DNA from: Malacoraja senta
Taxonomy: Eukaryota
NCBI GenBank assembly: GCA_038087875.1
Contig: CM075989.1
Span: 12,650,001-12,710,000 of the forward strand
Direction: 5' to 3'
DNA length: 60,000 nt
Position numbers and translations under genes: made by a program. Positions 1 through 53,758 of the stretch are shown piece by piece (within the stretch, counting starts at the first letter, position 1; each line of letters opens with the position of its first letter). The notes under the pieces are model-generated. The model was not told where the DNA came from. It saw nothing but the letters and a program-made list of their open reading frames with translations, and did no database searches.

Positions 1-1666
1 CATGATATAGACCAGTTGGATATTTGGGCAGAGAAATTGCAGATAGGGTTTGAGGTGTTACACCTTGGCAGATCAAATGTAAAGAGAAAGTATCCGGTAA
101 ATGGTAGGTTTAATTGAAGCACTGATGTACAAAGAGATCTTGGGGTGTAAGATCATAGCTGCCTGAAAATAGTAAAGAAGGCATGCTTGTCTTCATTGGT
201 TGGGGCACTGAGTATAAAGTCAGGAAGTCATGTTGCAGCTATATAAAATTTTGGATAGACACCAAATGCTGGAGTAACTCAGCGGGACAGGCAGCATCTG
301 TGGAGAGAAGGAATGGGTGACGTTTCGGGTTGAAACCCTTTTCAGACTGATGTCAGGGGAGTGGGCGGGACAGAGGTAGAATGTAATCAGAAACAGTCAG
401 ACTGGTGGGAGAACTGGGCCGGGGGAGGGGATGGAGAGAGAGGGAAAGCAAGGGCTATTTGAAGTTAGAGAATTCAATGTTCATACCGCTGGGGTGTAAA
501 CTACCCAAGCGAAATATGAGATGCTGTTCCTCCAATTTGCGTTGGGCCTCACTCTGACAATGGAGGAGGCCCAGGACAGAAAGGTCAGATTGGGAATGGG
601 AGGGGGAATTAAAGTGCTGACCAACCGAGAGATCAGGTAGGTTAAGGCGGACTGAGCGGAGGTGTTCATCGAAACGATCACTGAGCCTTATTAGATCGTT
701 GATCTCGCCGATGTACAGAAGTTGACACCTGGAACAGTGGATATAGTAGATGAGTTTGGAGGAGGTGCAAGTGAACCTCTGCCTCTCCTGAAAAGACTGT
801 CGGGGTCCTTGGATGGTGTCGAGGGGGGAGGTAAAGGGACAGGTGTTGCATCTCCTGCGGTTGCAGAGGAAAGTACCTAGGGAGGGGGTGGTTTGGTTGA
901 GAAGGGACGAGTTGACCAGGGAGTTGCGGAGGGAACGGTCTCTGCGGAAAACAGAAAGGGGTGAAGAGGTGAAGAAGTGGCCAGGAGTGGGACCCGTTGG
1001 AAGTGGCGAAAGGGTTGGAGGATTATATGCTGATGGGGTGGAAGGTGAGGACAAGGGGGACTCTGTCCTTGTTGCGAAAGGTGCGAGGTGGAGCATGAAC
1101 GGAGCTCGGGATATGGAGGAGATCCTAGTGAGAGCCTCATCTATATACAATTCTGGTTAGACCGCGTACAGAGTATTGTGTGCAGTTCTTGTCACCACAC
1201 TATAGGAAGGATTTGGAGGCTTTGGAGAGGGTGCAGAAAAGGCATACCAGGATGTTGGCTGGATTGGAGAGCATTAGCTGTAAGGAGTGGTTGGATAAAA
1301 TTGGAGTGTTTGCTCTGGACTGTTGGAGGCTGAGGAGTGACTTGATAGAAGTTTTAAAAAAATATGAGAAGCATGGATAAGATAGTTAGTCTTTCTCCCA
1401 GGGTAGAGGGCATAACTTCAACATAAAAAAAGGGGAAAAGTTCAGAGGAGATGGGTGAGGCATGTTTTTAACATAGAGAGTTGATAAATGCCTGCAATGG
1501 GCTGTCAGACGAGGTGATAGAACCAGATATAATAGCAACGTTTAAGAGACATTTAAATCGACACACGGACAGGGAATGGAGAAATATAGCAGGCAGGCAG
1601 ATGGGCTGAGTTATATTGGTATCATGATTGGTGCAGACATAGTGGGCCGAAGGGCCTGTTCCCTCT
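1..1666 (+). mobile_element. Degraded CR1 LINE 3' fragment, interrupted by a Penelope-like element at 261-1140
   Basis: QFLSPHYRKDLEALERVQKR.TRML.GL and RLRSDLIEV motifs; CR1-type 3' UTR gggccgaagggcctgtt. Confidence 0.8.
261..1140 (-). mobile_element. 5'-truncated Penelope-like element (Neptune-type): Cys linker, GIY-YIG endonuclease and 3' pLTR with hammerhead motif
   Basis: ORF 455..1150: CNRRRCNTC linker, LIYYIHCSRCQLLYIGE, RFDEH, VGQHFN, EQHLIFRLGSLHPSGMN; imperfect 22-bp TSD at 239-260 / 1141-1162. Confidence 0.85.
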
Positions 1667-1998: not shown

Positions 1999-2232
1999 TA
2001 ACTGTTTCAGTGGAAATCAACCTGGGAAGAGCCTGCCACCTTGTGGTGTAATAAAATAACACAGCAAATCCTTCATTTGTACAGTCATTAAACCTTAATT
2101 TCTTTGGTTACAAATAAATTGAAGAGATCTTCGTTCTTGAATGCATGTTTTGCTGATGTCAGCCAGGTTAATGACATTATTTCAACAAATAGATTAAATT
2201 GCAACAACTAATTGTGAAATTCTTAGATGTCC

Positions 2233-3234
2233 ATATTAATGATTTGGATGAGGATATTAATGATTTGGATGAGGGAATTGAATGCAACATCTCCAAGTTT
2301 GCGGATGACACGAAGCTGGGGGGCAGTGTTAGCTGTGAGGAGGATGCTAGGAGGCTGCAAGGTGACTTGGATAGGCTGGGTGAGTGGGCAAATGCATGGC
2401 AGATGCAGTATAATGTGGATAAATGTGAGGTTATCCACTTTGGTGGCAAAAACAGGAAAGTAGACTATTATCTAAATGGTGGCCGATTAGGGAAAGGGGA
2501 GATGCAACGAGACCTGGGTGTCATGGTACACCAGTCATTGAAAGTAGGCATGCAGGTGCAGCAGGCAGTGAAGAAAGCGAATGGTATGTTAGCATTCATA
2601 GCAAAAGGATTTGAGTATAGGAGCAGGGAGGTTCTAGTGCAGTTGTACAGGGTCTTGGTGAGACCACACCTGGAGTATTGCGTACAGTTTTGGTCTCCAA
2701 ATCTGAGGAAAGACATTCTTGCCATAGAGGGAGTACAGAGAAGGTTCACCAGATTGATTCCTGGGATGTCAGGACTTTCATATGAAGAAAGACTGGATAG
2801 ACTCGGCTTGCACTCGCTAGAATTTAGAAGATTGAGGGGGGATCTTATAGAAACTTACAAAATTCTTAAGGGGTTGGACAGGCTAGATGCAGGAAGATTG
2901 TTCCCGATGTTGGGGAAGTCCACGACAAGGGGGCACAGTTTAAGGATTAAGGGGAAATCCTTTAGGACCGAGATGAGAAAAACAATTTTCACACAGAGTG
3001 GTGAATCTCTGGAACTCTCTGCCACAGAAGTTAGTTGAGGCCAGTTCATTGGCTATATTTAAGAGGGAGTTAGATGTGGCCCTTGCGGCTAAAGGGCTCA
3101 GGGGGTATGGAGAGAAGGCAGGTACAGGATACTGAGTTGGATGATCAGCCATGATCATATTGAATGGCGGTGCAGGCTCGAAGGGCCGAATGGCCTACTC
3201 CTGCACCTATTTTCTATGTTTCTATGTTTCTATG
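2233..3234 (+). mobile_element. Relatively young 5'-truncated CR1 LINE (RT C-terminal part and 3' UTR)
   Basis: ORF 2199..3038: SKFADDTKLGG, LQGDLDRL, RPHLEYCVQFWSP; (TTTCTATG)3 tail; 21-bp tandem duplication at 2233-2274. Confidence 0.92.
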
Positions 3235-8224: not shown

Positions 8225-11200
8225 TTATTTTTTTATTTTTATTTTTATTTATTAGAAGTACATTACATTACAACCAATTACACTAGTACTCATCACGTAT
8301 ATCTTATTACAATTAATGTACTCCGTCATTTTTTACACTGATAAAAAGGAAAGGTTGAGATTAAGAAAAAAGAGAAAGTGAAGGAAAATAGTGAAGGTGT
8401 AAAAACATGACAACAAGAAAGAACAGAGAACCCATAGAAAAGAAATTAAAAAGAAAGGATTAAGAGATAGACACTAAAGAAGAAAAAAAAGAGAAAGAGG
8501 AAAAAAGAGAAAAACAAATACTTTGTTATAAGCATCACGCAAATGGGATATACCAACTCTCCAGCTTTCATCCCCCTTTACCTGACCTCAGTTTTTTTTT
8601 AAAGTACTTTTGCACCCTATACTTGTAATAATTCTATAAATGCAGACCACGTCAGGTGGAAGTGATCTGGTTTACCTGCCAGGAGGAGTCTTATCTCTTC
8701 TAGGTGTAATGTTTCAAACATATTTGAAATCCACATGTTTATAGATGGTATTGGAGCGTTTTTCCAGAATTTTAGGATTAACTTTTTTCCAGTTATTAAC
8801 CCGTAATCTATTAATTTCTTTTGAAACACATTTAGTTCAGGACTCTTCCGTTGTTCTGAAGATAATCCATTCTGCTTTTGGTATCAGTTTTATTTTAAAT
8901 AATTTTGTAAAGATTTCAAAAATTTCAATCCAAAATTTTTGAATTTTTGTACAAAAACAAATGAGTGCGCTATAGTAGCTTCTTGAGATTGACATCTATC
9001 ACAAATGGATGATACATCGGGGAAAATGTTATAAATTTTAGTTTTTGAATAATATAATCTATGTAAAATTTTAAATTGTATTAAAGTGTGTCTAACATTA
9101 ATCGAACATTTATGCACGTTTAACAAATGTTCATTCCACCTTTCGTTTGAGATTTTAATAGCTAATTCTTGTTCCCAGTCTCTTCTAATACCCGTAGATG
9201 GTATTTCTACATTTAAGATAATATTATACAAATATGATATTAAGTTTGCTGATTCAGCTTTTATCTGCATTGCTTCATCCAATACATCTGCTGGGATATT
9301 ATAATGATCTTTTGTATATTTTTTCAAATAGTCACATATTTGAAAATATTTAAAATATTGATTATTTCCCAGTTTATATTTTATTTGTAATTGTTGGAAT
9401 GATAGTAATTTTCCAGTTTCATACAAGTCACCAAACGTTTTAATTCCTAGTCTATCCCAGTGTGTAAAAGATTTGTCTGTAATAGAGCGATTAAACGAAG
9501 GGTTATTAACTATTGGAGATAAAAGCGATAGATTTCTTAATTTTAAATTTTGTATTATTTGTTTCCAAGTTCTGATTGTACTATGTATAATTGGGTTTTT
9601 GTTATAATTTATGTTATTCAGTTTCATTGGTGAGAGGAAGATCGCTCCAATATTACCAGAGGAGCAGTCCTCTCTCTCCATTACACTCCAGTCCACTTGC
9701 TGGGCAGAGTTGTCCATCAGTTGGATCATATTTTTAATATTTACTGACCAATAATAATACATGGTTAGGGAGTGCTAAGCCCCCTAATACTTTAGCTTTG
9801 TTCAAGTGTGTTCTTTGTATTCTATGGGATTTATAAACCCCATATAAAATTAATAATGTCTGAGTCCAATTTAAAAAAAACCTTCTTTGGTAGGTATATA
9901 GGAATCGATTGAAATAGGTATAAAATTTGTGGTAAGAAGATCATTTTTATTGCATTTATTCGGCCTATTAAAGACATCTGAAGCGTTTTCCAAAATTTAA
10001 TTAATGTATTTAATTTATTAAGTAGAGGATCATAATTTGCTTTGAACATGCCTTGATATGTTCTGGTGATTTCAATACCCAAGTATTTAAATTTTTCTGT
10101 AGCTATTTTAAAAGGGAATTTTAAAAGATGTGTTGAGTCTTTCGGTTTTATTGACATAATTTCACTTTTATTCCAATTTATTCTGTATCCAGAAAAGGAT
10201 CCAAAGTCCTCAATTAGATTTAGTATGTTTGGTATAGTATTTTGAGGTTTTGTAATGTACAATAATATATCATCTGCGTATAAAGATATTTTATTATTTG
10301 AGTATTTAGTATTATACCCATGGATATCTGGATGTGTTCTAATTTTTTCTGCTAAAGGTTCAATTATGAGAGCAAACAACTGTGGTGATAATGAGCATCC
10401 TTGTCTGTTTCCCCTTGATAGTTGAAATTTTGAGGATAATATGTTATTAGTTAGTATTCTAGCTGTAGGTTTATTATATAATAATTTAATCCATAAAATA
10501 AAATTCTCTCCCAGTTGGAATTTTTGTAATACTTTATCCATATAATTCCATTCTACTTGGTCAAATGCTTTTTCAGCGTCCAGCGAAATAATTGATAATT
10601 CTTGTTCTTCAATTTTGTGTGAGTGCATTATATTGAGTAGACGTCTCATATTATTAGATGAATATCTCTTAGGGATAAACCCCGTCTGATCTGGGTTTAT
10701 TAATTTACTAATATATTTACTTAATCTTCTATCTAATGTTTTCGCTAATATTTTTGATCTGTATTTAACAATGCTATAGCTCTATATGAACCCGGTTCTT
10801 CTATATCTTTGTCATTTTTAAGTATTAGTTTGATCGTTGATTCAGCTAATGTATCAGGTAATATTTGTTTTTTAAAAGCATATTGATACATTTTTTGTAA
10901 CCGTGGTATAATTTTGTCATAAAAGCTTTTATAAAATTCATTAGTAAATCCATCAGGACCTGGAGTTTTTCCATTCTTTAATGAATTTATTGTGTCTTCT
11001 AATTCCTTGATTGAAATTTGTGCACCCAATTCCTCTTGTTCCTTCAACTCTAACTTTGGAAGATTACAATTATCCAAGAACTCTGTAATTTTATTGGAGT
11101 CCGTTGTCGTTTTAGATGTGTACAAATTCTCATAAAATTGCGCAAATCTTTTATTAATATCCTTCGGTATGGTTAGTAATTCCCCTCTATCTGATTTAAT

Positions 11201-12704
11201 CTTTTGGATCGTATGTTCTTTTTCTCGTTTTTTTAGCTGACGAGCCAAAAGTTTATGCGGTTTATCCCCAAATTCAAAGTGTTCCTGTTTTGTAATTTGG
11301 AAAAGTCTTATAAGTTTGGCTGATAATAGTTTATTTAATTTAAATTTCAAAATTATTATTTTATTATGTTTATCTATTGATGGATCTTTAGCATTATCTA
11401 TATCCATTTGTCTAATAAGTTCTTCTAACTCTTTGTTCATTCTTATTCTTTTTATTTTGAAAAGCTTGGTATGAGATTATAACACCTCTAATAAATGCTT
11501 TAATAGATTCCCATAGTAAAGTAGGCGATATATCTGGAGTGTCATTTATTTCAAAAAAGACGTCCATTTGTTCTTTTAAATATATACTCGCTTGCGGATC
11601 TTTTAGGATTTGAGAATTGAATCTCCAAAATGATTTATTCTTAGACATTCCTTCCAGTTTTAAAAAGAAAGTTAGTGGTGAATGGTCTGAAATCGAATTT
11701 GTATGGTATGCTGGGTTCACAGTGTGAGGGATTAATTTTGTATCCACCAGGAAATAATCTATACGTGAGTATGTTTTGTGTACCATTGAATAAAACGAGT
11801 ATTCCCTGCCAGTCGGATTAGCAATTCTCCAAACATCTGTTATATTGGTATTATTTATATAAGTATTTAAAAGTTCACTAGTTTTAGATTTCGTATTCCC
11901 TCTCTGTTTTTGGCTTGATTTGTCTAAATACGGATCTAAAATACAGTTAAAGTCTCCTCCTATTATAACATTTTGATAATTAAACTCTGCGATTATGTTC
12001 AGAATTTTATTGAAAAAATGAGGATTGTCAAAGTTAGGCGCGTATATATTTACCAAGGTAATTGGAGTATCATGAATTTCTCCGGTAACTATCAAATATC
12101 TCCCTTCAATGTCTGTTATGGTATTCTTTGCTTTGAATGGTATACCTTTTCTAATAATGATTGACGTACCTCTAGATTTCGAAGTATATGAAGAATGATA
12201 TATTTGACCTATCCATTTCGCCCTCAACCTAGCTTGATCCTGGGATTTTAGATGAGTTTCTTGTAAGAAAATGATGTCAGAATTGTACAGTTTCAGCTGA
12301 GCTAATATCTTACCCCTTTTAATAGGTTCATTACTACCTCTTATATTCCAACTGCAGAATGAGACTCCTCCTAGGTTCATTTGTTTAACATCTTGCATTT
12401 TGAATAATTATAATACCTTTAAATCTTGCGGTGCATCCATGTCTCAGGTCTTTGGGTATTGGGGGAACCTTTGCATTACTAAGTTTTGTTGGCATATCCC
12501 TTTTACGCTTATCACTAAACACAAAACACAAACATGTGACTTTATGTGGTAATAATAATAATTTAAAAACAATTTAAAAAGTGAAAATACAGTGTCTAAA
12601 ATGGTCGACACTGTAACAAGTGGCCCACCTGTAGGTGGGAGAAAACCTTGTTTCGACTTCCATTGTTGATGTTAAACATATAACTCCGTACCCTTGGTTA
12701 ATCA
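8225..12704 (-). mobile_element. L1/Tx1-clade LINE with entire but frameshifted ORF2 (APE endonuclease, RT, C-terminal Cys region), truncated before ORF1
   Basis: SWNIRG, LQETH, GGDFN, SRIDY, SDH (APE); KTPGPDG, SLDAEKAFD, RQGCSLSP, LYADD (RT); C..C in ORF 8890..9762; 15-bp TSD accacagggattatt at 8210-8224 / 12705-12719. Confidence 0.93.
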
Positions 12705-15370: not shown

Positions 15371-16520
<1,150 letters not shown>

Positions 16521-18788
16521 GCGGTGGGAGATTAAACAGTTCAACTGCTTTTGAGGGTTGAATAGTTTTGGTGGAATCCTCATTCTCTTTAACAAAAAAA
16601 CTGTATCCACATCCATCAATTACTGTTTCACCAGGCTGAACACTGTGTGATTATTCTATACTGGCATAAGAATCTAGAAGGGAGATAGTCATTGTATCAC
16701 TGTGTAGTGACTAATGGAGTGGGCGTATGGTAGGGAGGGGTGAGAATGACTGGGCAGTGTGTCCAAGGTCGGTGGGGAAGAGGAAGAGATTCAAAAAATC
16801 AACATGATCTGTGGCTCATTCTTGAATGCCATTTTGTAAATGTATATATTTTTCATATATTGTTACAATTTTCACCATGATAGATGAAATATCTGTTCTG
16901 GGAAACTATGTGCCATGGATAAATAATTCAGTTGAAATGTCATTAATTGATTGTGAATGGAGTTTTAGAATTATCTTTGCAAGAGTGTCCGTGAATTAGA
17001 GCGTCTGGTCCTAGGTATGATTTGAGGCAGGGAAGGTAGGAAAATGTTTTAGTCAGAGCCATTATGTTTCCTGTCACAGAATTATAGCTGATATCTTTGA
17101 CCTTTTGGAGGCACAAATTGTTCAATATTTTCATCTGCAATTCTCTGTATTGCATTGTTCTACTTCATCTTGATATCATAGGTCATTTTTGTGTCACCAT
17201 TGCCTTTAGCTCATGAGGCTAATTGTAAGAACCTTTTGGGGGAAAAATAAAACTATCTTGGACCAGTCAAACTGTAACTCACTTGGTTTAGTTTATATCG
17301 TTAGGTATGTGACGAGAAATGTTGGTGTTACTTATTTAGTAGTTTTAAAAGAATGTCCAGTGATCAGATACGATTCATGGTAATACTTGATCCTGCCATT
17401 GAAACCAATGAACTGCCCTGCTAGTATTCACCATCTGTAACGCTACCATGCTTCTCCGAGGGACATGTCTGGGTACGGATTTCACACAGAGTAGTGAATG
17501 TCTGAATGGTACATGGAGTTGGAGATGTTTGAACCTATCTGTGATCCCACCTAACTTTGAATGTGAAGGATGGAACTTGAATAGAGATGCAGGTGGTGTA
17601 AGTTGGGGATTGTTTGAACATGAAAATTAAAAACTCTGCAGAAAAGACTCAGCAGGTCAAGCAGCATCTGTAGGGAGAAAAACTGACTTAACATTTCAGA
17701 TCGAAGTCCCATTTGAATGTTCTGATAAAAGGTCTTTGACTTGAAACATTAACTCTGTTTCTCTTGTAACAGATGTGGCATGACCAGCAGAATATTTCCA
17801 GCCATTTCTGTTTTTATTTAATATCTCTGTGGCGTTTGGGCTTTGCAGTATTTTCTCAGTCTCGGCCAAATAAACAAACCTTGATATCACCACTGATTCA
17901 ACTTTTGGCAGCTAGCTGTAAGTTATTGAATTCTACAATACAGAAGAAGGACATTCTTCCCATCCTGCTGGTGATGTTTTTTTGGAAAAGCTCTCAGTTT
18001 ATCCCATTCCCTTTAATAGGTATCCTACAGACTACGTACAATGAATAGGAAACTGTGGTTGATATCATTATGGGGAGACCTAAAGTATAAGAAAACTAAT
18101 CTTACGGACTGAAAATAAAAAGAAAGTTTAAGTCAAACATTTCTCACTCCCAAATGCTTTGTTCCCCTCGGAGTAGTTCAGGCTGGTAACTCAATTCCTC
18201 GAGTAATGTGTTTAAGCGTTCCAATTTTCCACAAAATCTTATTGATGTCAGAAATAATGTGTTCAGCAAACATTTGCAGGGTTGAACTGATGTAATCTTT
18301 ACAGTGACTTTGTGTAAGTGACTGGTCTCAAGAATTCCTTCAACATCTCAGATGTTCTTTCTGCAGAGTTGGTACGTATTGGTGCATTTCAGTGTCTCTA
18401 CAGCATTTATTCTTGGTTCAGATTTGTTTTCAAAATACAACCAGTGTGTTATATTGTGGCAATGTGTGCCTATTTATTCTACTTCAATGTATTTTGTTTC
18501 TGCTTTACACTTGTGTCTTATTTGAAAGTCTTAATAGCATTAAAGTGTCCACTGGCATTTAATGTAGAAGATATTGGTGATTATGATACTGGAGATCATT
18601 AATCTTTCATTAATTTTCTTTCTCTGTCTCTATTTCCTTTCTTATTCTCGTTCCCACTTTTCAGACTTCTTTTGGACCATACATTTCCTACTGTCTGTCC
18701 CTCTGCTCAGTCTTTGCTTGTCTCACTCTTAGATATATTTATATTTACTCCATGTGCATATATTTTGTGCTGACTTATCTTTCCTTAG

Positions 18789-19982: not shown

Positions 19983-22900
19983 GTCAGTAAGCCCTCAACA
20001 TAATTTTACTTTGAAATGTTTTGGCTAAAATGGCAGTGGTAATATTGTAGATGAACCTCATTCACTGGTAACAAGGTGAATGCTCACTTTACTGTCTTAT
20101 CTCCCCTCTATAGCTCCCATAGAATCATATTGCTGACAAAGTACTGCACAGCCTTTGATTTCTTTATTTGAGCAGAATTACTGATGTGTCTCTATTGCGA
20201 AGTTGTGGACTGACAACCCAAACTACAATCACAGAAAGGAGCTCGACATGATAATTGAGGTTGATGCATTATTGATTTGTGTACGAAAGTTGCAGTGTGA
20301 GGTTATGGAATGCCCTCTCAGCATGTGGAAACACAGCTACAGACAGCTGTACAGTCTTACAATTTGCATCTATAATGGAAGAAATTCAGACATACTGGCA
20401 TACGGATTGCCATGCACATTGTTCTGTAAAAATAACTCATGACCTCTTTTCATATCTGTCCTGGATGGCTGACCATTAATTTTGAGACTGTGACCATAAT
20501 TTTGGACTCCGCAAAGGGAAAGATCATTGCCACATCTATCTTGTGAAGTCCAGGGAAAGTATTGTTGTAAAATGCCTGGGACAACGCCCCTGCTCTTCTT
20601 TGGAAATGTAGTGGGACATTTTGTCTCGATTTGATGGTGTAGAAAAGATCTCATTCAGCCTCTCGTCTGGAAGGCACTCTCCCTTTATAATGCATGAGTA
20701 ACTAAGTGCTGTCCCTCAGAAAGAAAGGACAATTCAGCGTCTAGTCTCTGTTACCATATCTTCACATTGATATCCAATTAAAACCGCATAATCCATCGTC
20801 TCTTTCCACAGATGCTGCTTGTTCTGCTGTGAATGTCGGATCACAGAATGTGTCTGTGCTCGCTCTTTTAAAGAGCATTCCAGTTTATTTCCACTGCTCA
20901 ACATTTCCCTCGTCACCCTATAATTATTTCCAAACGCATTCAGTTGCTTTTCCAGCATTTTTAGTTTTTCTTTCAGATTACTACTTCTACAGTAAAGCAG
21001 ATTCTGCTAGTCCCAGCTGGTTCCGGGTTTTAACTAAATTCCATATTTATCTCAGTAAGGTTGGCTTTGCCAGCACTGTAACCACTCTCCGTCATTGTAA
21101 CCTGAGGACCAGGTCTGACTCAGTTGTGATGCTTCCTGCACCATCTAGGCGCACCTTAAATTTATGCTTTTGGTGAAGTGCCATCAGGATTTGGACCGGC
21201 ACACAGTGAAGGGGGGTCGTCAGGAAGAGGAGGAGGAGGGGCTGCAAAAGTAATGCTCTAGGGCCAAGTGCACCTGGGATTCTGTGAGTTGGCTCTTGGT
21301 ATTTGCATTGTGAAATTGACCCTTTCCACCAGGAGCAGCTTCCTAGACACGTGGACGTAACTGTGAGGGGTGTAAGGGAGCCTGATGATATGAAAAGCAG
21401 AGTCAGGTCATGACCAAGCAAACCAAACAAAGGTAATTGGCAAACCAAACCTGGCCAACAATGTGGTGAGATGTCTGGGTACCTCTGCCATTAACCAACT
21501 TTTCCTCTTTCTTTCTTTCCAGCCATTTCTGGAGCTTGGAGGAAGTTTCAGCGGATTACTGTCAGTGGCAGAGGGGCAGCTGGAGGGGGCACGAGTAGTT
21601 ATTTCCCTCTTTCAGTCATTATTCTGCATTATTCAAATATTATTTGTAAAGTTCACTTCCCGTATGTTTGAATTTTTACAACCGTCACTCAATGTTTTTA
21701 CGTGTGAAATAATGGGCTTGTTTTGAAGTGTGAAATGTTGCTAGTTTGCTACAAATCTTTGTGATGTTTGTTAGAGAAACGGCCCGAGGTTGGTAAGCTG
21801 TCCCTTGTGCTTCCGCGCATCAGGATGCACTATGTATGTTTTTTCCTTTGCTTCCCTTAATCTCATTGTGTTTATTTATTACCTGTTTGTATATGTATGC
21901 ATCTCTTACACACTCAGTGATGGTGTAAGGGCAGTTGTTATGGCCAAGCTCACTGAGAGATGAACATAGACTGGGACATCCTGGGGATGTAGTGATCAAA
22001 CACAAACCTTGAAAGAAAAATGGGAGATGCTGTGTGAAGTCCCCACCCAGCGCTCTCCCATAAACACACAGCATAAAGATAGACGGATGGATTTTGAGCA
22101 CATTTTAAATGACCTCAAGAAGGCGAGAGCCAATAACAGGGGATTCTGTTACCGAGTTAATGGTTTCAAATTCTAAGGCTTTAACTCGGTGCTTCCTCTC
22201 TAATCCTCTTGAACTCATTTCTACTTTTAAGATGTGCTCGAAATCTATCTGTTTAACTACGTTTTTTTCCCCAGATCTCATTATGTAGCTCAGTGCATGC
22301 TTCAGCAGTGCATCTTTGGGTGTTTCCCATATTAAAGTTGCTACAATCTTTATGGCTACTGCTGTTGGTTTTGGCAGGTCCTGAGATTATTTGGGTCCCA
22401 CCACTCAAAATACATTACAGCACAGCTGAAGGTCCCGTTAGCCCAGAAAACCAGGGAATCCCTGATGTCAAATTATTTTTGTCTTACATTTGTAATGTTT
22501 GTGGAGGTCTTACATAAAATGTAAAGGACACAGAAAGCACATAATTACTGACCTGTTAGGTGCAACATGATGTTTTCACTGAAGGATCTAAGGTAGAACA
22601 TCTTGAAAAGAATAAAAGGACCAAGCAGTGTCAGCATGGATTTATGAAATGAAAATCTATTGGGGTGCTTTGCATTTATGACTTGTAGAATTGATATGGT
22701 GAACCAGTGGATATGACCTGTTTGTATTTACAAAAGGCTTTCAATAATGTTCCATGGAGCAGGTTGGTCAACAAGGTTAGGGAACACAGAAATGGGGTGA
22801 TGAACTGACATAGATTAAGAAATAGTTATCAGACAGAAAGCATAGAGTAGGTATAAACAGATGCTTCTCAGGTGAGCAGGCTGGGGCAGGTTTGATGTTT

Positions 22901-23147
22901 GGGACCCAGCTATTCACAATTGACATCAACAGTTTAGCTGAAGAGACTATATGTTATGTTTCCAAGGATAAATCAGGAACTACAGATGTTGGTTTACAAA
23001 AAAAAGGCACAAAGTGCTGGAATAACTCAGCGGGTCAGGCAGCATCTCTGGAGAACTTGGATAGGTGGCGTTATGGGTCAGGACCCTTTTTCAACTTGTT
23101 GTGGTGAGGAATGAGTGAGCTGGAATGGAAGAGAGGCAGGACAAAGT

Positions 23148-24850
23148 AGTTTAGTTTATTGTTTCTGAGGTACAGTGAAAAGCTTTTTCTAGCGTGCTAA
23201 CCAGTCAGCGGAAAGACTATACATTACAATCACACTGTCCACAATGTACAGATACATGATAAAGAGAATAACGTTTAGTGCATGATAAGATAGTCTGATT
23301 AAAGATAGTCCGAGGGTCTCCAATGAGGTCAGTAGTACCAGATTACAATAGATAGTAGCTCAATAGAAAGTAGCAATAGATAGTAGCTCAGGACCACTCT
23401 CTAGTTGTTGATAGGATGGTTCAGTTGCCTGATACTGTGATGCATCCCGATAAATGCTTTCTATGGCGTATCTGTAGAAGTTGCTGAGAGTTGTTGGGGA
23501 CATGCCGAACGTCCAAAGCCTTCTAAGCCAATAGAAGCATTGGTGTGCTTTCTTGGGTGGTCGAGGACAAGTTGCTGGTGATATTTACTCCAAGGAACTT
23601 GAAGCTTTCAACCATCTCTATTTCAGCGCCGTCAGTGTATGCATACTGCTTTGCTTCCTGAAGTCTATCACTATCTTCTTTGTCTTGCTGACATTGAGAG
23701 AAAGGTTGTTGTCTTGCCACCAGGTCACAAAGTTCTCAATCTCCTTCCTGTACTCCATGTCGTCATTATTTGATAGCCGGCCCACTATGGTGGAGTTGTC
23801 CGCGAATTTGTAAACTGAATTGGATTTGTACTTGGCTGCACAATCATGGATATATAAGGAATAAAGAAGGGGGCTGAGATCACCAGTATTGAGAATTATC
23901 GTAGAGGATGATTTGTCTCCTCTCCTCACTGATTGTCTGTCGCCTGTTGGTCAGGTAGACGAGGATCCAGTTAGAGGGATGAGTGCTGACTACAGGTTCC
24001 ATGAGTTTGGAAATGAGCTTGGATGGAATAATGGTATTAAAAGCAGAGCTGTGGTCGATGAATAGAAGTCTGATGTAAGTGTGCCTCTTATCCAGGTGTT
24101 CCAGGGATGAGTATAGGGCCAGGGAGATGGCATCAGTCGTGGTCCTGTTATGGGGGTAGGCCAATTGCAGTGGGTCAAGGCTGCTTTGTAAACTGGATTT
24201 AATGTGTTCCTTAATAGCCTCGCGAGCTCTTCATGATGGTGGATATCAAGGCCACTGGTCGGTAGTTATTAAGGCATGAAATCTTGTTTTTCTTCAGTAC
24301 TGGGATGATAGTGGCCTTCTTGAAGCAGGTGGGTACCTCAGAATGGAGAATGGGGAGATTAAAGATGTCCGTGAATACTCCCGCTAGATGATCCACACAG
24401 TTTCTCAGGACACGACCAGGGACTTCGCTCGGGCCAGTTGTTTTCCGTGGGTTCACCCTCAGGAAGGCCAGTCTAACTTCTGCAACAGTGACCATGGAAG
24501 AGCACACGAGTCTGATGGGACGGATGTCATAGCCCTATTGGCCTTCTGTTCAAGTAAACATAGAAAGCACTGTACATTAGGCAGGGCTGCACTATCACCA
24601 TTGATGTTGCCTGACTTGTCCTATTATAACCCTATTGAAGCAATGGCCAAGAAAACAGACCAACGCCTCTACTTCCTTAGACGGCTTAGGAGGTTCAGCA
24701 TGTCCGCAACAACTGTCATAAGTCAAACGATCTCGAGCGGTACAAGAAAGCTCACTATGATCTTTGTAAAGCTATTAAGGGTGTCAAGAGACAATACCGG
24801 GACAAACTTGAGTCCCAGTATGATCACCGCAGAAAATGACACGGTCTGAA
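23148..24850 (-). mobile_element. Rex1/Babar-like LINE RT with an inverted 5' portion
   Basis: TIIPVLKK...NYRPVAL, IRLLFIDHSSAFNTIIPSKL, LSPLLYSLY.HDC, KFADNSTIVG, LNVSKTKKIVIDFRK; 24620-24850 is in the opposite orientation. Confidence 0.8.
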
Positions 24851-26787: not shown

Positions 26788-28462
26788 CAGTGCCCTCCAT
26801 AATGTTTGGGGCAAAGACCCATCATTTATTTATTTGCCTCTGTACTCCACAATTTGAGATTTGGAATAGAAAAAAATCACATGTGGTTAAAGTGCACATA
26901 GTCAGATTCTAATAAAGGCCATTTTTATACATTTTGGTTTCACCATGTAGAAATTACAGCAGTGTTTATACATAGTTCCCCCATTTCAGGGCACCATAAT
27001 GTTTGTGACACAGCAATGTTATGTAAATGAAAGTAGTCATGTTTAGTATTTTGTTGCATATCCTTTGCATGCAATGACTGCTTAAAGTATGTGATTCATG
27101 GACATCACCAGTTGCAGGGTGTCTTCTCTGGTGATGTTATGCCTGGCCTGTATTGCAGCCATCTTTAGCTTATGCTTGTTTTGGGGGCTAGTCCTTTTCA
27201 GTTTTCACTTCAGCATATAAAAGGTATGCTCAGTTGGGTTCAGATTTGGTGATTGACTTGGCCACTCAAGAATTGACAATTTTTTAGCTTTGAAAAGCTC
27301 CTTTGTTGCTTTAGCAGTATGTTTGGGATCATTGTCTTGCTGTAGAATGAACCGCCAGCCAAAGAGTTTTGAGGCATTTGTTGAACTTGAGCAGATAGGA
27401 TGTGTCTATACACTTCAGAATTCATCATGTTACTACCATCAGGAGTTGTATCATCAATGAAGATAAGTGAGCCAGTACCTTCAGCAGCCATACATGCCCA
27501 GGCCATAACACCCCCACCACTGTGTTTCACAGGTGAGGTGATGCTTTGGATCCTTCTCTCCTCCATACTTTGCTCTTGCCATCACACTGATATAAGTTAA
27601 TCTTCGTCTCATCCCATCCACAAGACCTTATTCCAGAACTGTGGTTGCTCTTTTAACTACTTCTTGGCAAACTGTAACCTGACCATCCTATTTTTGCGGC
27701 TAACCAGTGGTTTGCAACTTGCAATGTAGCTTCTGTATTTCTGTTCATGAAGTCTTCTGCGGACAGTGGACATTGACAAATCCACACCTGACTCCTGAAG
27801 AGTGTTTCTGATCTGTCGGTCAGGTGTTTGGGGATTTTTCTTTATTATAGAGAGAATTCTTCTGTCATCAGCTGTGGAGGTCTTCCTTGGCCTGCCGGTC
27901 CCTTTGCGATTAGTAAGCTCACCAGTGCTCTCTTTCTTCTTAATGATGTTCCAAACAGTTGATTTTGGTAAGCCTAAGGTTTGGCTGATGTCTCTAATAG
28001 TTTTAATCGTGTTTCTCAGTCTCATAATGGCTTCTTTGACTTTCATTGTCACAACTTTGGTCCTCATGTTGATAAACAGCAAAAGTTTCCAAAGGTGATG
28101 GAAAGATTGGAGGAAAGACTAGGTGCTGAGAGCTCTCTTATACCTGCATTAAGGAGGCAATTAAACATGCTTGAGCAATTACAAACGCCTGTGAAGCCAT
28201 GTGTCCCAAACATTATGGTGCCCTGAAGTGGGTGGGGTGGGGGGGGGGGGGGGGGGGGGGAAGAGAGAGACGGGACTATGTGCAAACACAGCTGTAATTT
28301 CTACACGGTAAATCCAAAATGTATAAAAATGGTCTTTAATAAAATCTGACAATGTGCACTTTAACCACGTCATTTCTTTTCTATTCCAAATCTCAAATTG
28401 TGGAGTACAGAGGCAAATAAATTAATGATGGGTCTTTGTCCCAAACATTATGGAGGGCACTG
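26788..28462 (-). mobile_element. Full-length IR/DR-type Tc1 DNA transposon with disrupted transposase
   Basis: TA|CAGTGCCCTCC...GGAGGGCACTG|TA; roughly 225-260 bp inverted repeats with inner direct repeats; HTH/GRPRK in ORF 27657..28082; VKHSGGGVMAWAC in ORF 27240..27566. Confidence 0.95.
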
Positions 28463-38306: not shown

Positions 38307-39605
38307 CAACTTTACAAGATTCAATGAGATCCTCTCATTCTTCTGATCTCCAGTAAAAATGCCTAACCTTTCTAATCTCTCCTCAGTAACAAACACTGAC
38401 ATCCTAGGAGTCAGTCTGAGTAACCTTCACTGCACTCCTGCTACCAGAATATCCTTCCTCAAAACTGCACACATCACCAAGCCCCCCCCCTTACAATTGC
38501 AGCAAAACATCCACGCTCCAGTACACAAAACCTCACTTTGCACTTCAGACTTTTTCTGTAAGATTACTCGTATACCCAATGTTTCTCCTTTTATTTAAAA
38601 CCCCCTGGTGTACCTCTGCTTAGTTCTCAATTGTTTCCAGGCCTCAGGTTTGCTGCTTTCTTAAGGAATATATCTTATTGGATTCAATACTATCCCTAAT
38701 TTACCTCCTACCACGTGAGGAGGCCTCAGGAGAAGACTCGACAGCGATGTGGAGCAGTCGGTGCGACGGCTGATGATGGCGCAATCAGCAGTCGATGAGC
38801 ATTGGAGGGGGGGGAGAGAAAGACAATGGGGACCGGGTGTGGGGGGACCACCGTGAAGAACAATGGAGGACCCGGAGTGGGGGGACCGCCGTGAGGGACG
38901 GTGTGAGAACAAAGGGGGACCCAGTGTGGGGGGGCCACTCTAGTTGTAGAATCCTCTGCCCAGGGGATAAGCCTGCGTTCATTTGTTCATTAAGGTGCCG
39001 TTAAGGCAGCCAGCCAACAGTTGCTCATCTTTTTCTTTTTTGTTTCCAATTTCACTTTTAATTTAATTTTAATTTCAAGTTTTCGTGTACCTTGTTGTGT
39101 GTTGTGACTGTTGGCAGACCAATTTCCCTCCGGGAATGAATAAAGTTCTATCATATAGTATATCAGTGTAATTTTCTTTATTTAAATTTAGGACAGTCAT
39201 CTTAATCCACCACACCCCTCTCTCCATCTCAATGAAGAATTCTACCATATAGTGGTCACACTATTTCAAGGGTCTCAAGCATCAAAACTGTTAATTAATC
39301 TGTTTGGATCACACAATTCCCAGTCCAGGATTGCCTGTTCTGTGGTTGGTTCTTTGACATATTTGTGCAGAATATCATCCCATGTATATTCCAGGAATTC
39401 CCCCTCCATACTATTGTTACTAATTTGGTTAGCCCAATTTGTGGGTGGATTCAAGTCACCCATGATTACAGTTATATCCTCAATGCACATGTTCTGTTAG
39501 TGCCATCCCCAATATCCCACTACTATTGGGGGGGGTTCTGTAAACAGTCTATTTTTTGTCCCTTGGTAATTCTTAGCCCTACCCCTACAGATTTCACATC
39601 ATTGG

Positions 39606-39998
39606 TAGACAAAATGCTGGAGTAACTCAGCGGGACAGGCAGCATCTCTGGAGCGAAGGAAAGGGTGATGTTTCGGGTTGAGACCCTTCTTCAGACCGAG
39701 AGTCGGGGAGGGGGAGATACAGAGATAAGGAAGTGCAAGGTGTATGAATGAGACATCAAAGGGGGTGGAGATAAAGAAAAATATAGAATAGATCATTGTT
39801 AGTTTGTTAGGTAACAACAAGCAAACAGATAAAATGTAATCAGGGACAGTCAGACTGGTCATAGAACTGGGAAGGGGAGGCCTGGAGTGAGGAGGAAAGC
39901 AGGGGTTACGTGAAGTTAGAGAAGTCAATATTCATACCATTGAGGTGTAAGCTGCCCAAACTAAATAGGAGGTGCTATTCCTCCAATTTGCACTGGGC
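39606..39998 (-). mobile_element. Penelope-like element 3' fragment (GIY-YIG C-terminus and pLTR) inside a CR1 endonuclease remnant
   Basis: Homologous to 261-560; 11-bp TSD cacatcattgg at 39595-39605 / 39999-40009; flank encodes VIMGDLNPPTNWAN...AILD (CR1 APE). Confidence 0.8.
39664..39697 (-). ncRNA. Minimal type-I hammerhead ribozyme motif in a pLTR (GGU-CUGAAGA-stem II-GAAAC-AUC-ACC)
   Basis: CUGANGA and GAAA boxes intact; stem II GGGU/ACCC; stem I GGU/ACC; G16.2 replaced by A, consistent with CpG decay. Confidence 0.6.
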
Positions 39999-41277
39999 CA
40001 CATCATTGGAATCAATATCCTTTCTCACCACTTTATATGCAATAACACCATTCCACATCCTTTTCATACCCAAACTAACACTCCATACTCATTTCGATTC
40101 TCAGTATCCACAATCCCAATAATGCCCATATATTAAGATGCCTTTTTTCCTTTGGAAAATGCAACACCTCATTCTGACTGAACTACTATTAAAGTTTCCA
40201 CAAAGGTACGCTTGTAAAAAAACAGCTCGGCTGTCCCGTCACATGCAATCACACAACAATAATAATACGGAAACTTACACAGAACTCAAGCTGGAGACAA
40301 AGCACGGCAGATGCTAGGATCCCAAGCAAAAAATTAAAAAAAACAGCATGAGGAACTCAGCAGGTCAGGTCGTATCTGTGCAGGCAATGAAGACTATCTC
40401 TTTGCCACCATAAATAATATCTGACCCACTGACTTCCACCAGCAGCTTGGATTTTTTTCTCCCAAACACAAACTCTACACTTGATCGACTCGGCATCTGT
40501 AATGGCAGCTCATTTAACAACCCCATCAAGGTTTGTCCAGCACAGAAATAATTACACAGCCAGTTCATCACTTCTGAAATTCTGCCACAGTTCTGCCTTG
40601 GTATTTGTTTAGCTGGATGAGAGGTTAAACCCTGGGTTAGTGGCTATTTCACCACTTGTACAGGGTTCTGATCTAGACAATAAAATGAGGCTCTCCAAAG
40701 GCATCAAGATCTTTCTGCATGATACGAGTCAAATCAAGTATCATGAATCCACCAGAGAAGTCTGCTGCCCAAAGTGGACTAATGTGAAAGTCTGTATGAG
40801 CTGTTATATTAAGGCAGAGGAAAGGATCTTTTTATCTACCGAGATAAGCACTGGCTATCTAAACTATTCACATTCACCACCCAAAATATTGCACACAAAA
40901 TAGTGAGATTTCAAAATATCTCTTGCAAGTTTTACTCCCTATCTCAGAGGCTGATGACAGTGGGAATTCTTGTTTATCATCAAGTTACAGCTGTAAGTGA
41001 CAGGAAGTTGTTCCAAGCTGCATGCCCTGACGTCTTTGAGTAACCGCACTCTGGACGTGCAGAGACAAGCCACAGAAGCCTCCCTCAGGAAGACAAATTA
41101 CCCAAAAAAAACACACCACTGTCCCCCACACAATGAGAGGAAGCTAGTGTCACAAATAAAAACCACAATTACCTTTATTTTGCACAATATAACTATTAGC
41201 ACACATATTGTTTATCAGGTCTGCATCTTGCATTTTAAGACAATCTTCATTTTAGTCCCAATGAATCAACATACCTG

Positions 41278-42867: not shown

Positions 42868-43337
42868 TACTCCAAACTGACCTCATTTGCTATTGAGTAA
42901 AAGACGAAAACAGGGAACACTAAACCAAATTGGCTGATCTGACATTTGCAAACAGCAACACCCTGTTAACACCCAGCCTGTCGCACACCCCACCCATATC
43001 TCATCACTGCTTCCCTTCCCCACCATCACTATGCAAACCAGAGCTAAAATATATCCATTTCCTCCCCAGATGCTGCCTGCCCTGCTGAGTTACTCCAGCA
43101 CTTTGCTCAAGATTCCAGTATCTGCAATTCCTTGCTTCACTGCTTTTCAAATATCCAGCTTGCCCTCTAGCTGTGTCTGAAAGTTCTCAGTTTGACAGCC
43201 TGCTTTCCCAAGCCCATAAATACTTAACCCCAAACACTACTGCACCCACTTCATCTCTGTACCTGCATATGGGAGCAGTAAGAGGAAGGAGAATTCTGTA
43301 CAAAGATAATTCCATGATCCAGTAAATGCCAAACTTA

Positions 43338-46009: not shown

Positions 46010-46680
46010 TATTCCAAGCACCTTTCACAACCTCAGGACAACTCAAAGCTATTTACTGGCAATGCGTTAACTGAGGTGTCGTAACATCTGCATGTGGCAA
46101 GATCTCACACGCAGAAAAGGGAAATATGTTGTAGATGACAGCAGATACGCAAATATGTACAGTCATTGAGAAAGTTCCTGTCCTTTCCAGTTGTTCTACC
46201 TAGAGCAGCAGGTGGATCCTAATTTAATATTTCATTTGAAAGACCACACAAGGTTCACTTTGGATGTCCACTCAAGCTTTCCGAGTGGGTCAACCACTTC
46301 GACTCAGGGGAAACTGATAACTGAACTGTGATAATAACAAACAAAAATGTAATCTGCTTTTGTTGGAAAGTATTTGTTCTATTCAGCACAGTTCTGCTAT
46401 TGATAAGCTTCCTTTGGAAAATAAATGCTTGCATTTCTACAAACCTTTCACCATCTCAGGAAGTCTCAAAGCACTTTGCTTCTGTTGTAAAGTAGGAAAT
46501 GCAGCTGCCAATTTGCAGAGCAAAGACTTACAAATAACATTAAGATAACTGACCAGTTCATTAGTTTTAATGATGCTGGGCTAAACATTGCCAGGGATTT
46601 CAGAGAACTCCTATAACCAGCTAAGTAGCAGAAGGGGCCTCAGTTTTAACATTTTTACTAAAAAGTTAAGTCAAGACTTT
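46010..46680. mobile_element. Two degraded Deu-domain-like SINE remnants (similar piece at about 20560-20720)
   Basis: cctttcacaacctcagga...caaagc, aaatgcagctgccaatttgc and ggggcctcagttttaac motifs recalled from DeuSINE/SacSINE1. Confidence 0.4.
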
Positions 46681-47330
46681 GAGATGTCTTCCTTTCTCCG
46701 TACAGCTGGCCTCTCCCTCTGCCAGTTAACAGAGCTCTCCACTGTGTCCCATGTTTTCTGCACTGCTGCTCCTCCTGCTTTCCTCTCGACCACAATAACA
46801 AATGTTCCCCTTGTCCTCACCCTACACATTCTTCAGATCATCTGCCATTATTTTTGCCACCTTCGACAGAATTCCACACATCCTTCTAATATTCCATAGT
46901 GACTATTCCATTGACTCCCTGCTCCATTCTTCCATCTCCACCAATCAGATCCCATCCCCTGGCACTTTCCCACACAACGTCAGGAGCTGTATCACTTATC
47001 CCAACCTCTTCCCTTCCACCATCCAAGCAGGCGGGCAGTCCTTTAGTTGAAGCAGCAATTCACTCACACTTTGTTTAGTGTACTACATTCAGTGCTCATG
47101 ATATGGTCTCCTTTACACTGTGGAAATTGGGTGACCATTTCTCAAAACATCTCCATCCTGCCAACAAGGTGACCCTGAGGTTTAGATACATGGCATTTAA
47201 CCTCACCAACCTACTCCCACTCTGACCCCAGTCTTTGGCCTCCTACACTGTTCCAATGATGCTCAGGGTAAGCTTGAGCAACATTTCATCCTCCATCTGG
47301 GCACAATGCAGACCCCCACTCACTGAAGTT
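46670..47330 (+). mobile_element. Old degraded Penelope-like GIY-YIG fragment (similar remnants at about 3370-3630 and 5360-5560)
   Basis: NVPLVLTLH...QIICHYFCHL and PSPGTFPH parallel the 455..1150 protein. Confidence 0.6.
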
Positions 47331-50300
47331 AACATGTTCACAGTTCCCCCCCCCCCCCCTCTTTACACAGAGGTTACTGGATATTTAAGTTTCAGTTTGT
47401 TTCTTTGCCTCCAACTACTGGTTTATTAAGTAATTGTTACCTTAACAACTTTGGTGAGCATCCCAGACACTTCCTTTTATTTGCCACATCCTTCTCCCCC
47501 TGGAATTTAAATAACTTGTTTTGTAGTTGTCTCAGTTCTTTACCTGGAACACACTCTACCCCTACCGCTCTTTCCTCCCTCTCCCCCACAGTGAGACAAT
47601 ACAATTAGTAATTGGCTTTAGTTTCTCCGAGGCATGATTTCTTGCTGCAACAAATTAAATTATGCTTGAATAGTTATGGACAGTCGGTGACCTGTTTATT
47701 GAACAGACAAACACAGTGTAATATTTTCAATCCGTCAACCCTGAATCTTCAGCAAAAAAATGTCAGGTCACTGGGAGGTGGACATTTTGGGAAGGAAAGG
47801 TGTACTCGGGTAACATTTGATCAGCATTTCTGTCTAAATGGCAAACCTTTCCTTATCTGGCTGGATCCAGGCAGGGCTGCTGTGAGAACGATTATATCAG
47901 TCCTTTTAGAACCCAACCAAGGCTGACTAGAGTTTAAATTTCAGATGCAAGCCTGGATTTGTGATTAACAATTTCAAAGTATGCAGCCAGCAGCAGGATG
48001 AGAGTTTGAGCATGTCCAGATCTCAAATGGTGGAGGAAACTTATCGCAGCTGCTGATAAGCTGGGTGTTTCTGGAAAGAATGACTCGTGTATAATCAAAG
48101 CTGGAGCAGAAGGTCGAGAGGTGATCATGCATTAAACTGTACGCCAAAACAGATAGGGATTGTTTGAATAGCTGATATTTAAATTGACTTTCCAGAGAAT
48201 TTTTTAATCCGCACACAATGAAGATATGGAATAGGTGGATAGTTGCCATGAGCAACAATTATCTAGAACTCAACTCATTCAAGTCTTTAAAATAATAAAT
48301 TAGGAACATTTCTATGATCTACTGGAGAGCTACAGACTGGTTCAATTGAGGGCCAAACTGAAGCTTCTGCTGTTTCAGTTTGAATCTCAAACCCCTCACC
48401 CTTATTTCCTCTTTAAATTGACCTTAGATATTGTCGTTACCCAATACCATTCCACAAACATTACAAAGGAAACATTCTCTTATTTAACGCTGATGACAAT
48501 CAAAATACATTACAGAAGCAACATACTGCAGATTTGAACTTAGAAAAAAACAGGAACTGCTTGGATCAGACAGCACCCAAGGTATAGTGAAATGGTAAAC
48601 ATTGCAGGTAGATGACTTTTCACATTTACTTTAATGAAAGGTTCAATCTAAAATGTCCACTCTCCCAGGTGCTTTCTAAATTGTAAAGTACACGTAATTA
48701 CCTGGTTTTATAACAATGGTTTCATATTTATATCCAAATGTTGCATGATCTTTTGAAGGTGATTATGTCCATTTTATGTTGAGGTAAACGGTCAAGGCAA
48801 CAAAGAAATTAAATCAGGAACAGATAATTTTGTGGAGGTCATTGTTGGTCAGCTTCAAACATTGGATGAAGCCATTTGCTGGGTCACAAAATCCTGGGAA
48901 GTGCCGTCACGATAAAAGCCTTAGTCTGGGCAAGAACAGCTGGTTTCATTCCCAGAAAAGTTTAGGTAATGCTGGGCACGAGCTGCATCTCAATAAAGAA
49001 TCAGCTATTTCAATTTCCCAATTAAACACATTCACATTTTTATGACAAGCAGATTCACTTATAGTTCATCCAGATATATTTTGTTGGAATTTCCAACTAT
49101 CCAACAGAGGTAAAAAAAAAACTCCAAAGGCTATTTATATTATCACAATGTCAGCAATGTTCTGCACCAAAGATTCTGGAATACCTGATCAATTCAGTGT
49201 TCAGTGTTGCAAGCAAAAGCTGTAGCAGCTGGCTCAATGACAAGATAGCAAAAAAAGCACAAATCACTTTTTCTGTTGATTCAGACATCAGTATGAAATC
49301 CAACATTAGGTCATGGAAGCATAACATTGACTGCTGCTTCCCCCCCCCCCCCCCCCCCCCCCCACACACACACACAGATGCCAGCTTCTTAGATGGAAAT
49401 GCACAGGTAAATCCAAGTATTGGAAAAGGATTTAATTTCAGACCATACACGCAAACACTGCGCCATTGCACCGAGTGTGGTTACAAATGACTGTCAGTTA
49501 GAATTTGTTCGACTAGACACAATATCACCATATCCCAGAGGAGAAGCTAGGCATAAGATTGGATATAGTTTAACTGCTTAGGGAAAGTCAGGTAGGTGAA
49601 CCGAGCAAGGATATACATTAGCCAGTAAAATGTAGAAACAAGGAGCCGCAGATGTTGGTTTACAAAATGTGCTGGAGTAATTCAGCAGGTCAGGCAGCAT
49701 CTCTGCAAAACAGTGATATTGTGTCTAGTGATATTGATATTTTAGGTCGAGATCCTTCTTCACAGTCCATGAGCCTGGACATTATGAGCTCTAGATTCTG
49801 GGTAGCACTGGTTGCCCCTTAACTGCATTGATGCACAAATGGATCTTAGGATACAAGTCCATAGTTCAAACAAAGTGGCAACACAAGTAGATAGGAAGTC
49901 TACAATTTGCCTTCATCAATCAGGGTACAGTGTACAAAATCTAGTAATCCAAAATGTGTTTAATGTACAAAGTAGTTGCAACTCCAAAAACCGTTGGTTA
50001 AAAAAAAATTTAAGCCATATTTTAGTATTTTGTGTAGTTCTCCTCAGCACTTTACGGGATGTGGCAGCTTTGGAGAGGGTGCAGAATAGGTTTACCAGGA
50101 TGTTAACAGGGTTAGAGTATATCAGTGCGGGCTTATTATTGTCAAGCATACTGAGATACGGTAAAAAATATATATTTTGAGCTATTGAGGCAAGTATGCA
50201 AGCACGCAGTGCCTAAAGGGAAAATAAACAGAGCAGGATACTATATTAGCAAGAATATTAGCTAAACTTGGACTGGTGTCTTTAGAGTAGAAACAGAGGC

Positions 50301-53622: not shown

Positions 53623-53758
53623 AGAGCCAGGGCCAGAGGAAGAGCCAGGGCCAGAGGAAGGGCCGGAGCCAGAGGAAGGGCCGGGGCCAGAGGAAGGGCC
53701 GGGGCCAGAGGAAGGGCCGGGGCCAGAGGAAGGGCCGGGGCCAGAGGAAGGGCCAGGG
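53623..53758. repeat. 18-bp minisatellite (GGGGCCAGAGGAAGGGCC), about 7.5 copies, in RAB11A intron 1
   Basis: Direct reading; it produces the repetitive GPEEGP / WPRPFL / ALPLAP ORFs. Confidence 0.95.

Follow-up and report, generated by a model that had tools for sequence, protein, structure and literature searches.

Penelope-like elements (PLEs) of metazoans carry minimal hammerhead ribozymes, and those reported by Cervera and de la Peña (2014, PMC4209133) are the closest described counterparts of the motif considered here. The two share a type-I topology, the CUGANGA and GAAA boxes and a UH cut site, together with an extra base lying between 9 and 10.1, the G10.1-C11.1 pair and a loopless, palindromic 15.2-16.2 stem; in both, the motif lies 3' of the ORF and occurs mostly as dispersed single copies derived from truncated elements. 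One published minimal motif does not cleave as a monomer, and its dimers and trimers cleave little (PMC4209133). A second system, the Poseidon element PAc of the green anole (Frangieh et al. 2024, PMC11167929), likewise combines a pseudo-LTR hammerhead with a downstream stem-loop and has two 3' ends set apart by an optional tail of 30-40 nt, which these authors mapped to two reverse-transcription start sites. Its hammerhead cleaves only with the element's protein; hammerhead mutants nevertheless insert normally in vitro, and no RNA-seq reads end at the cut site.

Two further groups of elements bear on the comparison. The Neptune and Nematis PLEs (Craig et al. 2021, PMC8557442) possess a C-terminal GIY-YIG domain with a CCHH motif, a CX2-5CXXC linker, 5'-truncated and inverted copies and a tail on one end of the unit, all of which recur in the family described below; the targets seen in this family, by contrast, are not microsatellites, and the linker alone does not separate Neptune from Nematis. 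Animal non-LTR retrozymes (PMC7229834; 10.64898/2026.07.22.740005) contain type-I hammerheads within short, non-coding repeats related to pseudo-LTRs. They are built as head-to-tail tandem units with canonical hammerheads (PMC7229834), whereas we find dispersed truncations joined to an endonuclease ORF and a minimal motif.

We report a computational analysis of a 60-kb stretch of DNA (the window) from Malacoraja senta, whose commonest repeat is confirmed to derive from a Penelope-like element, of which it forms the 3' pseudo-LTR and whose linker is of the Neptune/Nematis type. We put at roughly 0.7 the probability that this family is an endonuclease-bearing Penelope-like retrotransposon that has been strongly amplified in this lineage and, judging from predicted folds and by analogy with the anole element, place a similar value on the view that its hammerhead would cleave conditionally, as a protein-assisted dimer. 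The family adds an example to a known kind; its chemistry and architecture are not new, and its copies in the window are dead. It extends the Penelope-hammerhead association to the cartilaginous fishes, which are absent from Table S1 of PMC4209133 and from the 56 motifs in its Fig. S3. Likewise, no Penelope hammerhead of a skate, ray or shark was found in the openly accessible literature searched, and the terms looked for do not occur in the main text of 10.1101/2025.02.19.638963; a related motif may be treated in the supplements of the preprint 10.64898/2026.07.22.740005, and Repbase or Dfam probably already list the repeat itself. With its abundance, its several subfamilies, its two classes of 3' end and a fold predicted to be inhibitory, the family is handy material for testing protein-dependent cleavage and selection against intact sense copies in introns.

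The Penelope-like repeat is the most frequent one in the window, as the preliminary description of this DNA had stated, since all 11 of the segments with at least three self-BLAST hits are pieces of it. A search of the window with nhmmer, using 256-400(-), returned 20 hits (17 at E < 0.05). The family fragments listed, 20 in number, amount to 2.4 kb when the ORF part of copy A is excluded. About half consist of the downstream hairpin only, without the hammerhead. Four groups of fragments are inverted pairs or nested units (17637-17806, 40346-40449, 54506-54702 and 59592-59734), so that the 20 fragments correspond to about 15 insertions. All nine of the sites at which a motif had been named do hold the motif or a remnant of it, and a tenth lies in copy J; the coordinates are collected in Table 1.

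Table 1. Copies and parts of the Penelope-like repeat in the 60-kb window. Sense and antisense are relative to the host gene named.
Feature	Positions	Strand	Motif or remnant	Remarks
Copy A, minimal type-I hammerhead	315-348	-	315-348	G8 deleted
Copy A, helix I	347-346 with 318-317	-
Copy A, core C3; helix II	345; 338-335 with 330-327	-
Copy A, G12; palindromic stem III	326; 323-320	-
Copy A, predicted cut	between 319 and 318	-
Copy A, ORF remnant	455-1140	-		5'-truncated, decayed; RT-region end, CX4CXXC linker, GIY-YIG with CCHH; stop 457-455
Copy A, conserved hairpin	264-299	-		3' of hammerhead; commonest part of repeat; short-class 3' end at 256
Copy A, target-site duplication, 3' copy	239-254	-		about 16 bp; 5' copy 1141-1156; 2 mismatches
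Copy B, endonuclease end and pseudo-LTR	51906-52356	-	52000-52025	helix II deleted; long tail; ~15-bp duplication; sense, first Rab11 intron
Copy C, endonuclease end and pseudo-LTR	39606-40007	-	39664-39697	intact core; helix I of 3 bp; palindrome of stem III lost with change of G16.2; 11-bp duplication, exact; sense, last Rab11 intron
Copy D	55495-55595	+	55505-55537	core intact; G16.2 changed; short 3' end
Copy G, second subfamily	59336-59459	+	59344-59374	damage to helix II, stem III and the G12 region; long tail
Copy E, second subfamily	22975-23102	-	23065-23095	several core lesions; long tail; antisense, EGF-repeat gene intron
Copy H	49637-49765	-	49740-49765	G12 lost; insertion after motif; long tail; sense, first Rab11 intron
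Copies J (-) and I (+), head-to-head inverted pair	17637-17806	-, +	J 17637-17714; I 17718-17753	older subfamily; in I, helix I and II letters differ, G8 and 16.2 changed
Nested unit, copy F (-) and inverted long-tail piece (+)	54506-54702	-, +	F 54623-54650	F truncated within core; ~15-bp duplication
Copy K	54506-54568	+		older; host of nested F unit in its 3' hairpin
Inverted pair, hairpin-only pieces	59592-59734			long tail on one end; 13-bp duplication; without hammerhead
Older inverted pair, hairpin-only pieces	40346-40449
Hairpin and long tail	15915-16018	+		without hammerhead; like pieces 43051-43133(+), 20786-20832(+)
Related Penelope-like element, endonuclease remnant	46669-47323	+		old, frameshifted; 32-34% aa identity (main segment); antisense, first Rab11 intron

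The majority sequence of the motif was formed from seven of the ten aligned copies; I, H and J, being older or interrupted, did not contribute to it. It passes a strict descriptor consisting of a 2-bp helix I, CUGANGA plus one nucleotide, a 4-bp helix II with a 4-nt loop, GAAA, a palindromic 15.2-16.2 stem and the UC cut site, which bears out the expectation that the core is intact in the family consensus. The same descriptor gives 0.005 hits per 60 kb on 200 dinucleotide shuffles of the window, or about 1e-5 per 250 nt. The helices differ somewhat from those first drawn: a helix II is present, but 4 bp with a 4-nt loop describes it better than 5 bp with a 2-nt loop, and the 3-bp helix I applies within the window only to copy C, and otherwise to most of the relatives. 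A 2-bp helix I occurs in 6 of the 56 published motifs, always with two G-C pairs (PMC4209133); one of the two pairs of our majority is U-A, which makes it weaker than any of those listed.

Every one of the ten remnants has at least one lesion in the core, stem II or stem III, as had been noted (A has lost G8 and B its helix II, C and D are altered at 16.2, and the others at several positions; the row of copy I is misaligned in the lesion table and its lesions were judged by eye). No single copy in the window passes the strict descriptor, and with stem III relaxed two do (39694-, 55507+), against 0.01 per shuffled window in 200 shuffles. A palindromic, loopless stem III is present in the majority, in copies A and F and in 9 of the 13 distinct rows of the 14-motif alignment described below, CpG decay having removed it in others; across the seven window copies, 13 of 53 CpG cells and 53 of 546 other cells are changed. 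The search with hammerhead models that had been proposed as a check returned nothing of the kind from Rfam: at E up to 10 there are eight weak matches in the window, none of them a ribozyme or hammerhead. With a loose core pattern, 14 overlapping matches were obtained at eight start sites, shuffles averaging 3.1 matches; three of the sites belong to the family and the other five, which fail the stem tests, were dismissed as chance.

Contigs of two public sequencing runs, matched at 80% likeness and from an organism that is possibly not the species of the window, carry the majority letters at 331 (72% and 84%) and 334 (93% and 96%). Loose ends at 340 restore G8 in 2,300 and 377 contigs, with no insertion row listed, and loose ends at 306 represent a second subfamily. 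Changes at G12 and C11.1 amount to 13-19%. Run X15 is tagged as probably DNA, and runs X22 and X23 amount to two and four poor reads.

The motif lies behind the endonuclease in copies A, B and C, in each of which the endonuclease ORF is continuous with the motif-bearing repeat. In copy A (256-1140) it begins at 348, 106 nt past the stop codon, in agreement with the distance of about 105 nt given previously. Against proteins of Mobula, Hypanus, Stegostoma and Chiloscyllium, the ORF at 455-1156(-) shows 51-55% identity, the protein relatives comprising six hits among 1,492 candidates. In the protein alignment the residues C141, C144, YIG, H165 and H181 are invariant, identifying a C-terminal GIY-YIG domain with CCHH; the window ORF has a CX4CXXC linker, of which cysteines 1 and 2 are invariant and the third is kept in four of five sequences. 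This zinc-finger-like linker places the element outside Penelope/Poseidon in the strict sense of Craig et al., whose linker definitions make it, on its sequence, Neptune- or Nematis-type. Reverse-transcriptase-like motifs lie upstream in four of the protein relatives (P0001-P0004) and in the metagenome locus L003, the window copy being truncated past the RT core. Pfam matches are faint: RVT_1 reaches E 0.053 on the L003 ORF, GIY-YIG (PF01541) reaches E 0.0008 on P0002, under the Pfam cut-off, and no domain is reported in any of the six window ORFs or in the window endonuclease fragment. No relative was found for the protein alignment among 68 candidates in viral contigs or 43 in prokaryote genomes, and no solved structure matches it.

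Two of the protein hits, P0005 (neuromedin-U receptor 1, Rhinoraja) and P0006 (DCC, Amblyraja), hold short pieces of the endonuclease as if exonised, at 77-87% identity to the window ORF; these are either exonisation or annotation error. P0003, a predicted protein of the zebra shark, runs through the 3' repeat, and its C-terminus reads like an in-frame translation of the motif, which at the protein level is compatible with an intact hammerhead core in that species; such a core would hold an in-frame ATG that is missing from the window majority. The related endonuclease remnant at 46669-47323(+) has no recognisable motif behind it.

More distant relatives come from metagenome contigs, in which 164 candidates reduce to 22 loci at 31-56% identity. 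A similar descriptor hits eight of these loci, with about 0.07 expected from shuffles; in five the motif is in sense, 114-213 nt behind the protein match, in one it is in sense upstream and in two it is inverted upstream, and the longer motif-to-protein distances arise because those protein matches end short of the ORF end. With nhmmer, 19 motif copies are found in 16 of the 22 loci. Of the six without a motif, three (L014, L018 and L019) end at most 156 nt past the match and two (L010 and L022) change sequence before the motif, the sixth being L005. The metagenome motifs have the core and spacing of the window majority, while helices I and II differ from it with compensation. A hairpin pattern found no stretches in viral contigs and none in metagenome contigs. 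The loci (L001-L022) represent a Penelope-like family about 40% identical to the fish endonuclease region with the same hammerhead spacing, and L004, L013 and L020 show an inverted-partner arrangement like that of the window.

Covariation in stems I and II had been suggested as a check, and compensated changes are indeed found in both helices, though essentially between two lineages. In the alignment of 14 motifs (six from the window, eight from the loci) 87% of the cells pair, and both sides have changed in 22. Helix II is paired in 94% of its cells and has double changes at three of its four pairs, copy I being out of register there, and helix I has double changes between the two lineages. 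The covariation score is 0.51 against 0.22 for shuffled alignments, with none of 500 as high and all slid controls lower, but the eight locus motifs are 95% alike, so that the score is close to a comparison of two lineages and the shuffle counts are not probabilities. Two further measures of covariation do not beat the shuffles (92 and 197 of 500). A covariance model built from the eight non-window motifs ranks C, D, A and B first of nine window matches, with rough E values of 0.004, 0.03, 0.08 and 0.33.

The insertions have ragged 5' ends and two fixed classes of 3' end about 40 nt apart, the short class comprising A, C, D and F and the long class B, E, G, H and the pieces at 15915 and 43051. 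The same tail of about 40 nt continues in the loose ends of run contigs at place 254 (2,441 in run X1 and 427 in X15). The outer end lies about 123 nt from helix II, compared with 111-118 nt in PAc (PMC11167929). PAc belongs to a different clade, the Penelope/Poseidon elements without the CX2-5CXXC linker, and its ORF begins at helix II; protein-assisted cleavage has been shown for PAc, whereas here we infer it. Target-site duplications measure about 16 (A), about 15 (B), 11 (C), 13 (the 59592 unit) and about 15 bp (the nested F unit). 5' truncation, inverted partners, an optional tail of 30-40 bp and variable target-site duplications are thus all present in the window family, and the duplications, inverted pairs and tail are compatible with insertion of the Penelope type. 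The 60-kb window holds no full-length element, 5' pseudo-LTR or same-strand tandem, and among its matches there are no head-to-tail tandem units that each have a complete hammerhead.

In four insertions (239-254, 39595-39605, 51891-51905 and 59735-59747) the duplicated target starts with CCA, at most 1-2 bases from the element's 3' end. These few cases make a target preference of the element possible. Copy A shows four bases of microhomology between the element end and the target. At 54506-54702 a young copy sits inside an older family member, in whose 3' hairpin it occupies a site containing AATT, with a duplication of about 15 bp; this recalls the anole element cutting within its own pseudo-LTR region.

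In the predicted minimum-energy fold of the majority sequence with its flanks, the core is paired to a downstream pyrimidine tract. By nearest-neighbour prediction, which takes in neither tertiary contacts nor protein, the hammerhead fold costs the majority 6.5 kcal/mol relative to the minimum, with a helix II probability near 0 in three lengths and helix I pairing near 0 in the monomer; for the relatives L003 and L011 the hammerhead folds lie 0.8 and 0.5 above the minimum, with helix II probabilities of 0.76-0.98. In an explicit dimer the bare hammerhead helices give -6.1, against -14.9 for the relatives. These predictions argue against spontaneous cleavage by the majority motif and are the chief result that weakens the earlier proposal of a self-cleaving consensus; because helix I has only two base pairs and the core is buried in the monomer, cleavage would likely need both a dimer and the element's own protein.

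Taken together with the order of the element (the end of the GIY-YIG ORF, the hammerhead about 110 nt downstream, the hairpin and the optional tail of about 40 nt), this suggests a scheme in which, in transcripts of tandem copies, two motifs would pair through the palindromic stem III. A cut after C17 (319/318 in copy A) would process the precursor RNA, with the element's protein most probably required as a chaperone, as in the anole element. Reverse transcription may begin at either of two points, about 80 and about 120 nt downstream of where helix II starts, yielding the two classes of 3' end, and early termination would leave mainly short pieces made up of hairpin and hammerhead. The dispersed single copies would be inert by-products, decaying fastest at the two CpGs over G12/C11.1 and stem III.

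The preliminary description had proposed a Penelope-like element with the minimal type-I layout and loopless palindromic stem III in its 3' pseudo-LTR, and our results support this assignment. That the likeness to a hammerhead arose by chance is next to negligible: such a motif is short, Rfam is silent and no single window copy passes the strict descriptor, yet the shuffles put its occurrence at the rate given above and distant relatives have the same position and core with different stems. Hardly more credible is an independent, non-autonomous retrozyme or SINE family of short pieces spreading through circular RNA. Most pieces do lack an ORF, and a 2026 preprint (10.64898/2026.07.22.740005) reports hammerhead-bearing retrozymes in one chondrichthyan genome and derives them from pseudo-LTRs; three copies here, however, run straight into the endonuclease ORF, the ragged 5' ends and two fixed 3' ends speak against such a family, and the window has no head-to-tail array of motif-bearing units.

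The remaining alternatives concern what the motif does. Efficient self-cleavage as a monomer or simple dimer, with intact genomic copies cutting sense read-through transcripts, seems very improbable, even though the core is intact in the majority and one Rab11 pre-mRNA would contain three same-strand remnants. The monomer has no stem III and an unfavourable predicted fold, the published minimal motif behaves poorly on its own (PMC4209133), all three Rab11 copies are lesioned, and neither host gene shows a visible shortage of sense copies, though the cases are few. A homologous Penelope hammerhead might instead have stopped cutting here and have been kept or inherited as a structure for protein binding or for the start of reverse transcription, or through an overlap with the ORF start in the 5' repeat. 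We consider this possible but on the whole unlikely. The 2-bp helix I and the predicted pairing of the core with the pyrimidine tract would suit it, as would the normal insertion in vitro of the anole mutants (PMC11167929) and the success of Naiad elements that lack hammerheads (PMC8557442; 10.1101/2021.04.23.441226). Against it, the majority keeps all core positions, the older copy I keeps paired helices with other letters, P0003 suggests the same boxes in a shark, and long conservation of an unused core is unlikely. Conditional cleavage by a protein-assisted dimer is thus the reading we prefer.

Two host genes occupy the window. On the minus strand lies a Rab11 gene, with exon motifs at 53909, 43523, 42522, 41473 and 34608 and Rab11A/B as its best PDB match, and on the plus strand an EGF-repeat gene, which we take to be MEGF10/11. 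Remnants B, H and C are in sense within introns of the former, remnant I is in sense within an intron of the latter, where E and J are antisense, and copy A is probably intronic and antisense. No effect on a host gene is indicated, because every sense intronic copy carries lesions. The high density that had been claimed, introns included, holds within the window, where ten remnants in 60 kb correspond to one per 6 kb, none intact. Extrapolated from the decay rates of this one window, perhaps 5-10% of remnants are intact genome-wide, which for a genome of about 2 Gb would give, to an order of magnitude, at least about 10,000 intact motifs. Were the window typical, with some 100,000 remnants and at least 10,000 intact, this would be among the largest hammerhead loads of any vertebrate; that such a load exists and is coupled to a protein-gated switch we regard as quite unlikely. 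In such a switch the 2-bp helix I and the pyrimidine tract would hide the core until protein binds the adjoining hairpin and tail; if true, RNA cutting and the onset of reverse transcription would be coupled through it, and intact intronic copies would be cut only under expression of the element. Published counts of minimal hammerheads are about 4,000 for the coelacanth and 9,000 for Xenopus (PMC4209133).

The window also holds other elements. At 8890-12407(-), in an intron of the EGF-repeat gene, lies an A+T-rich LINE of nearly full length, presumably L1/Tx1-like, whose endonuclease-like and RT-like frames are broken into four long open frames. Decayed elements occur at 2193-3038(+), 23618-24534(-), 57931-59091(-) and 27240-28118(-); we take these to be what is left of CR1-like, Rex/Babar-like and L2-like RTs and of a Tc1-like transposase. 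A G+C-rich tandem repeat of about 18 bp is located at 53392-53932, near the start of the first Rab11 intron, in a CpG-rich promoter region.
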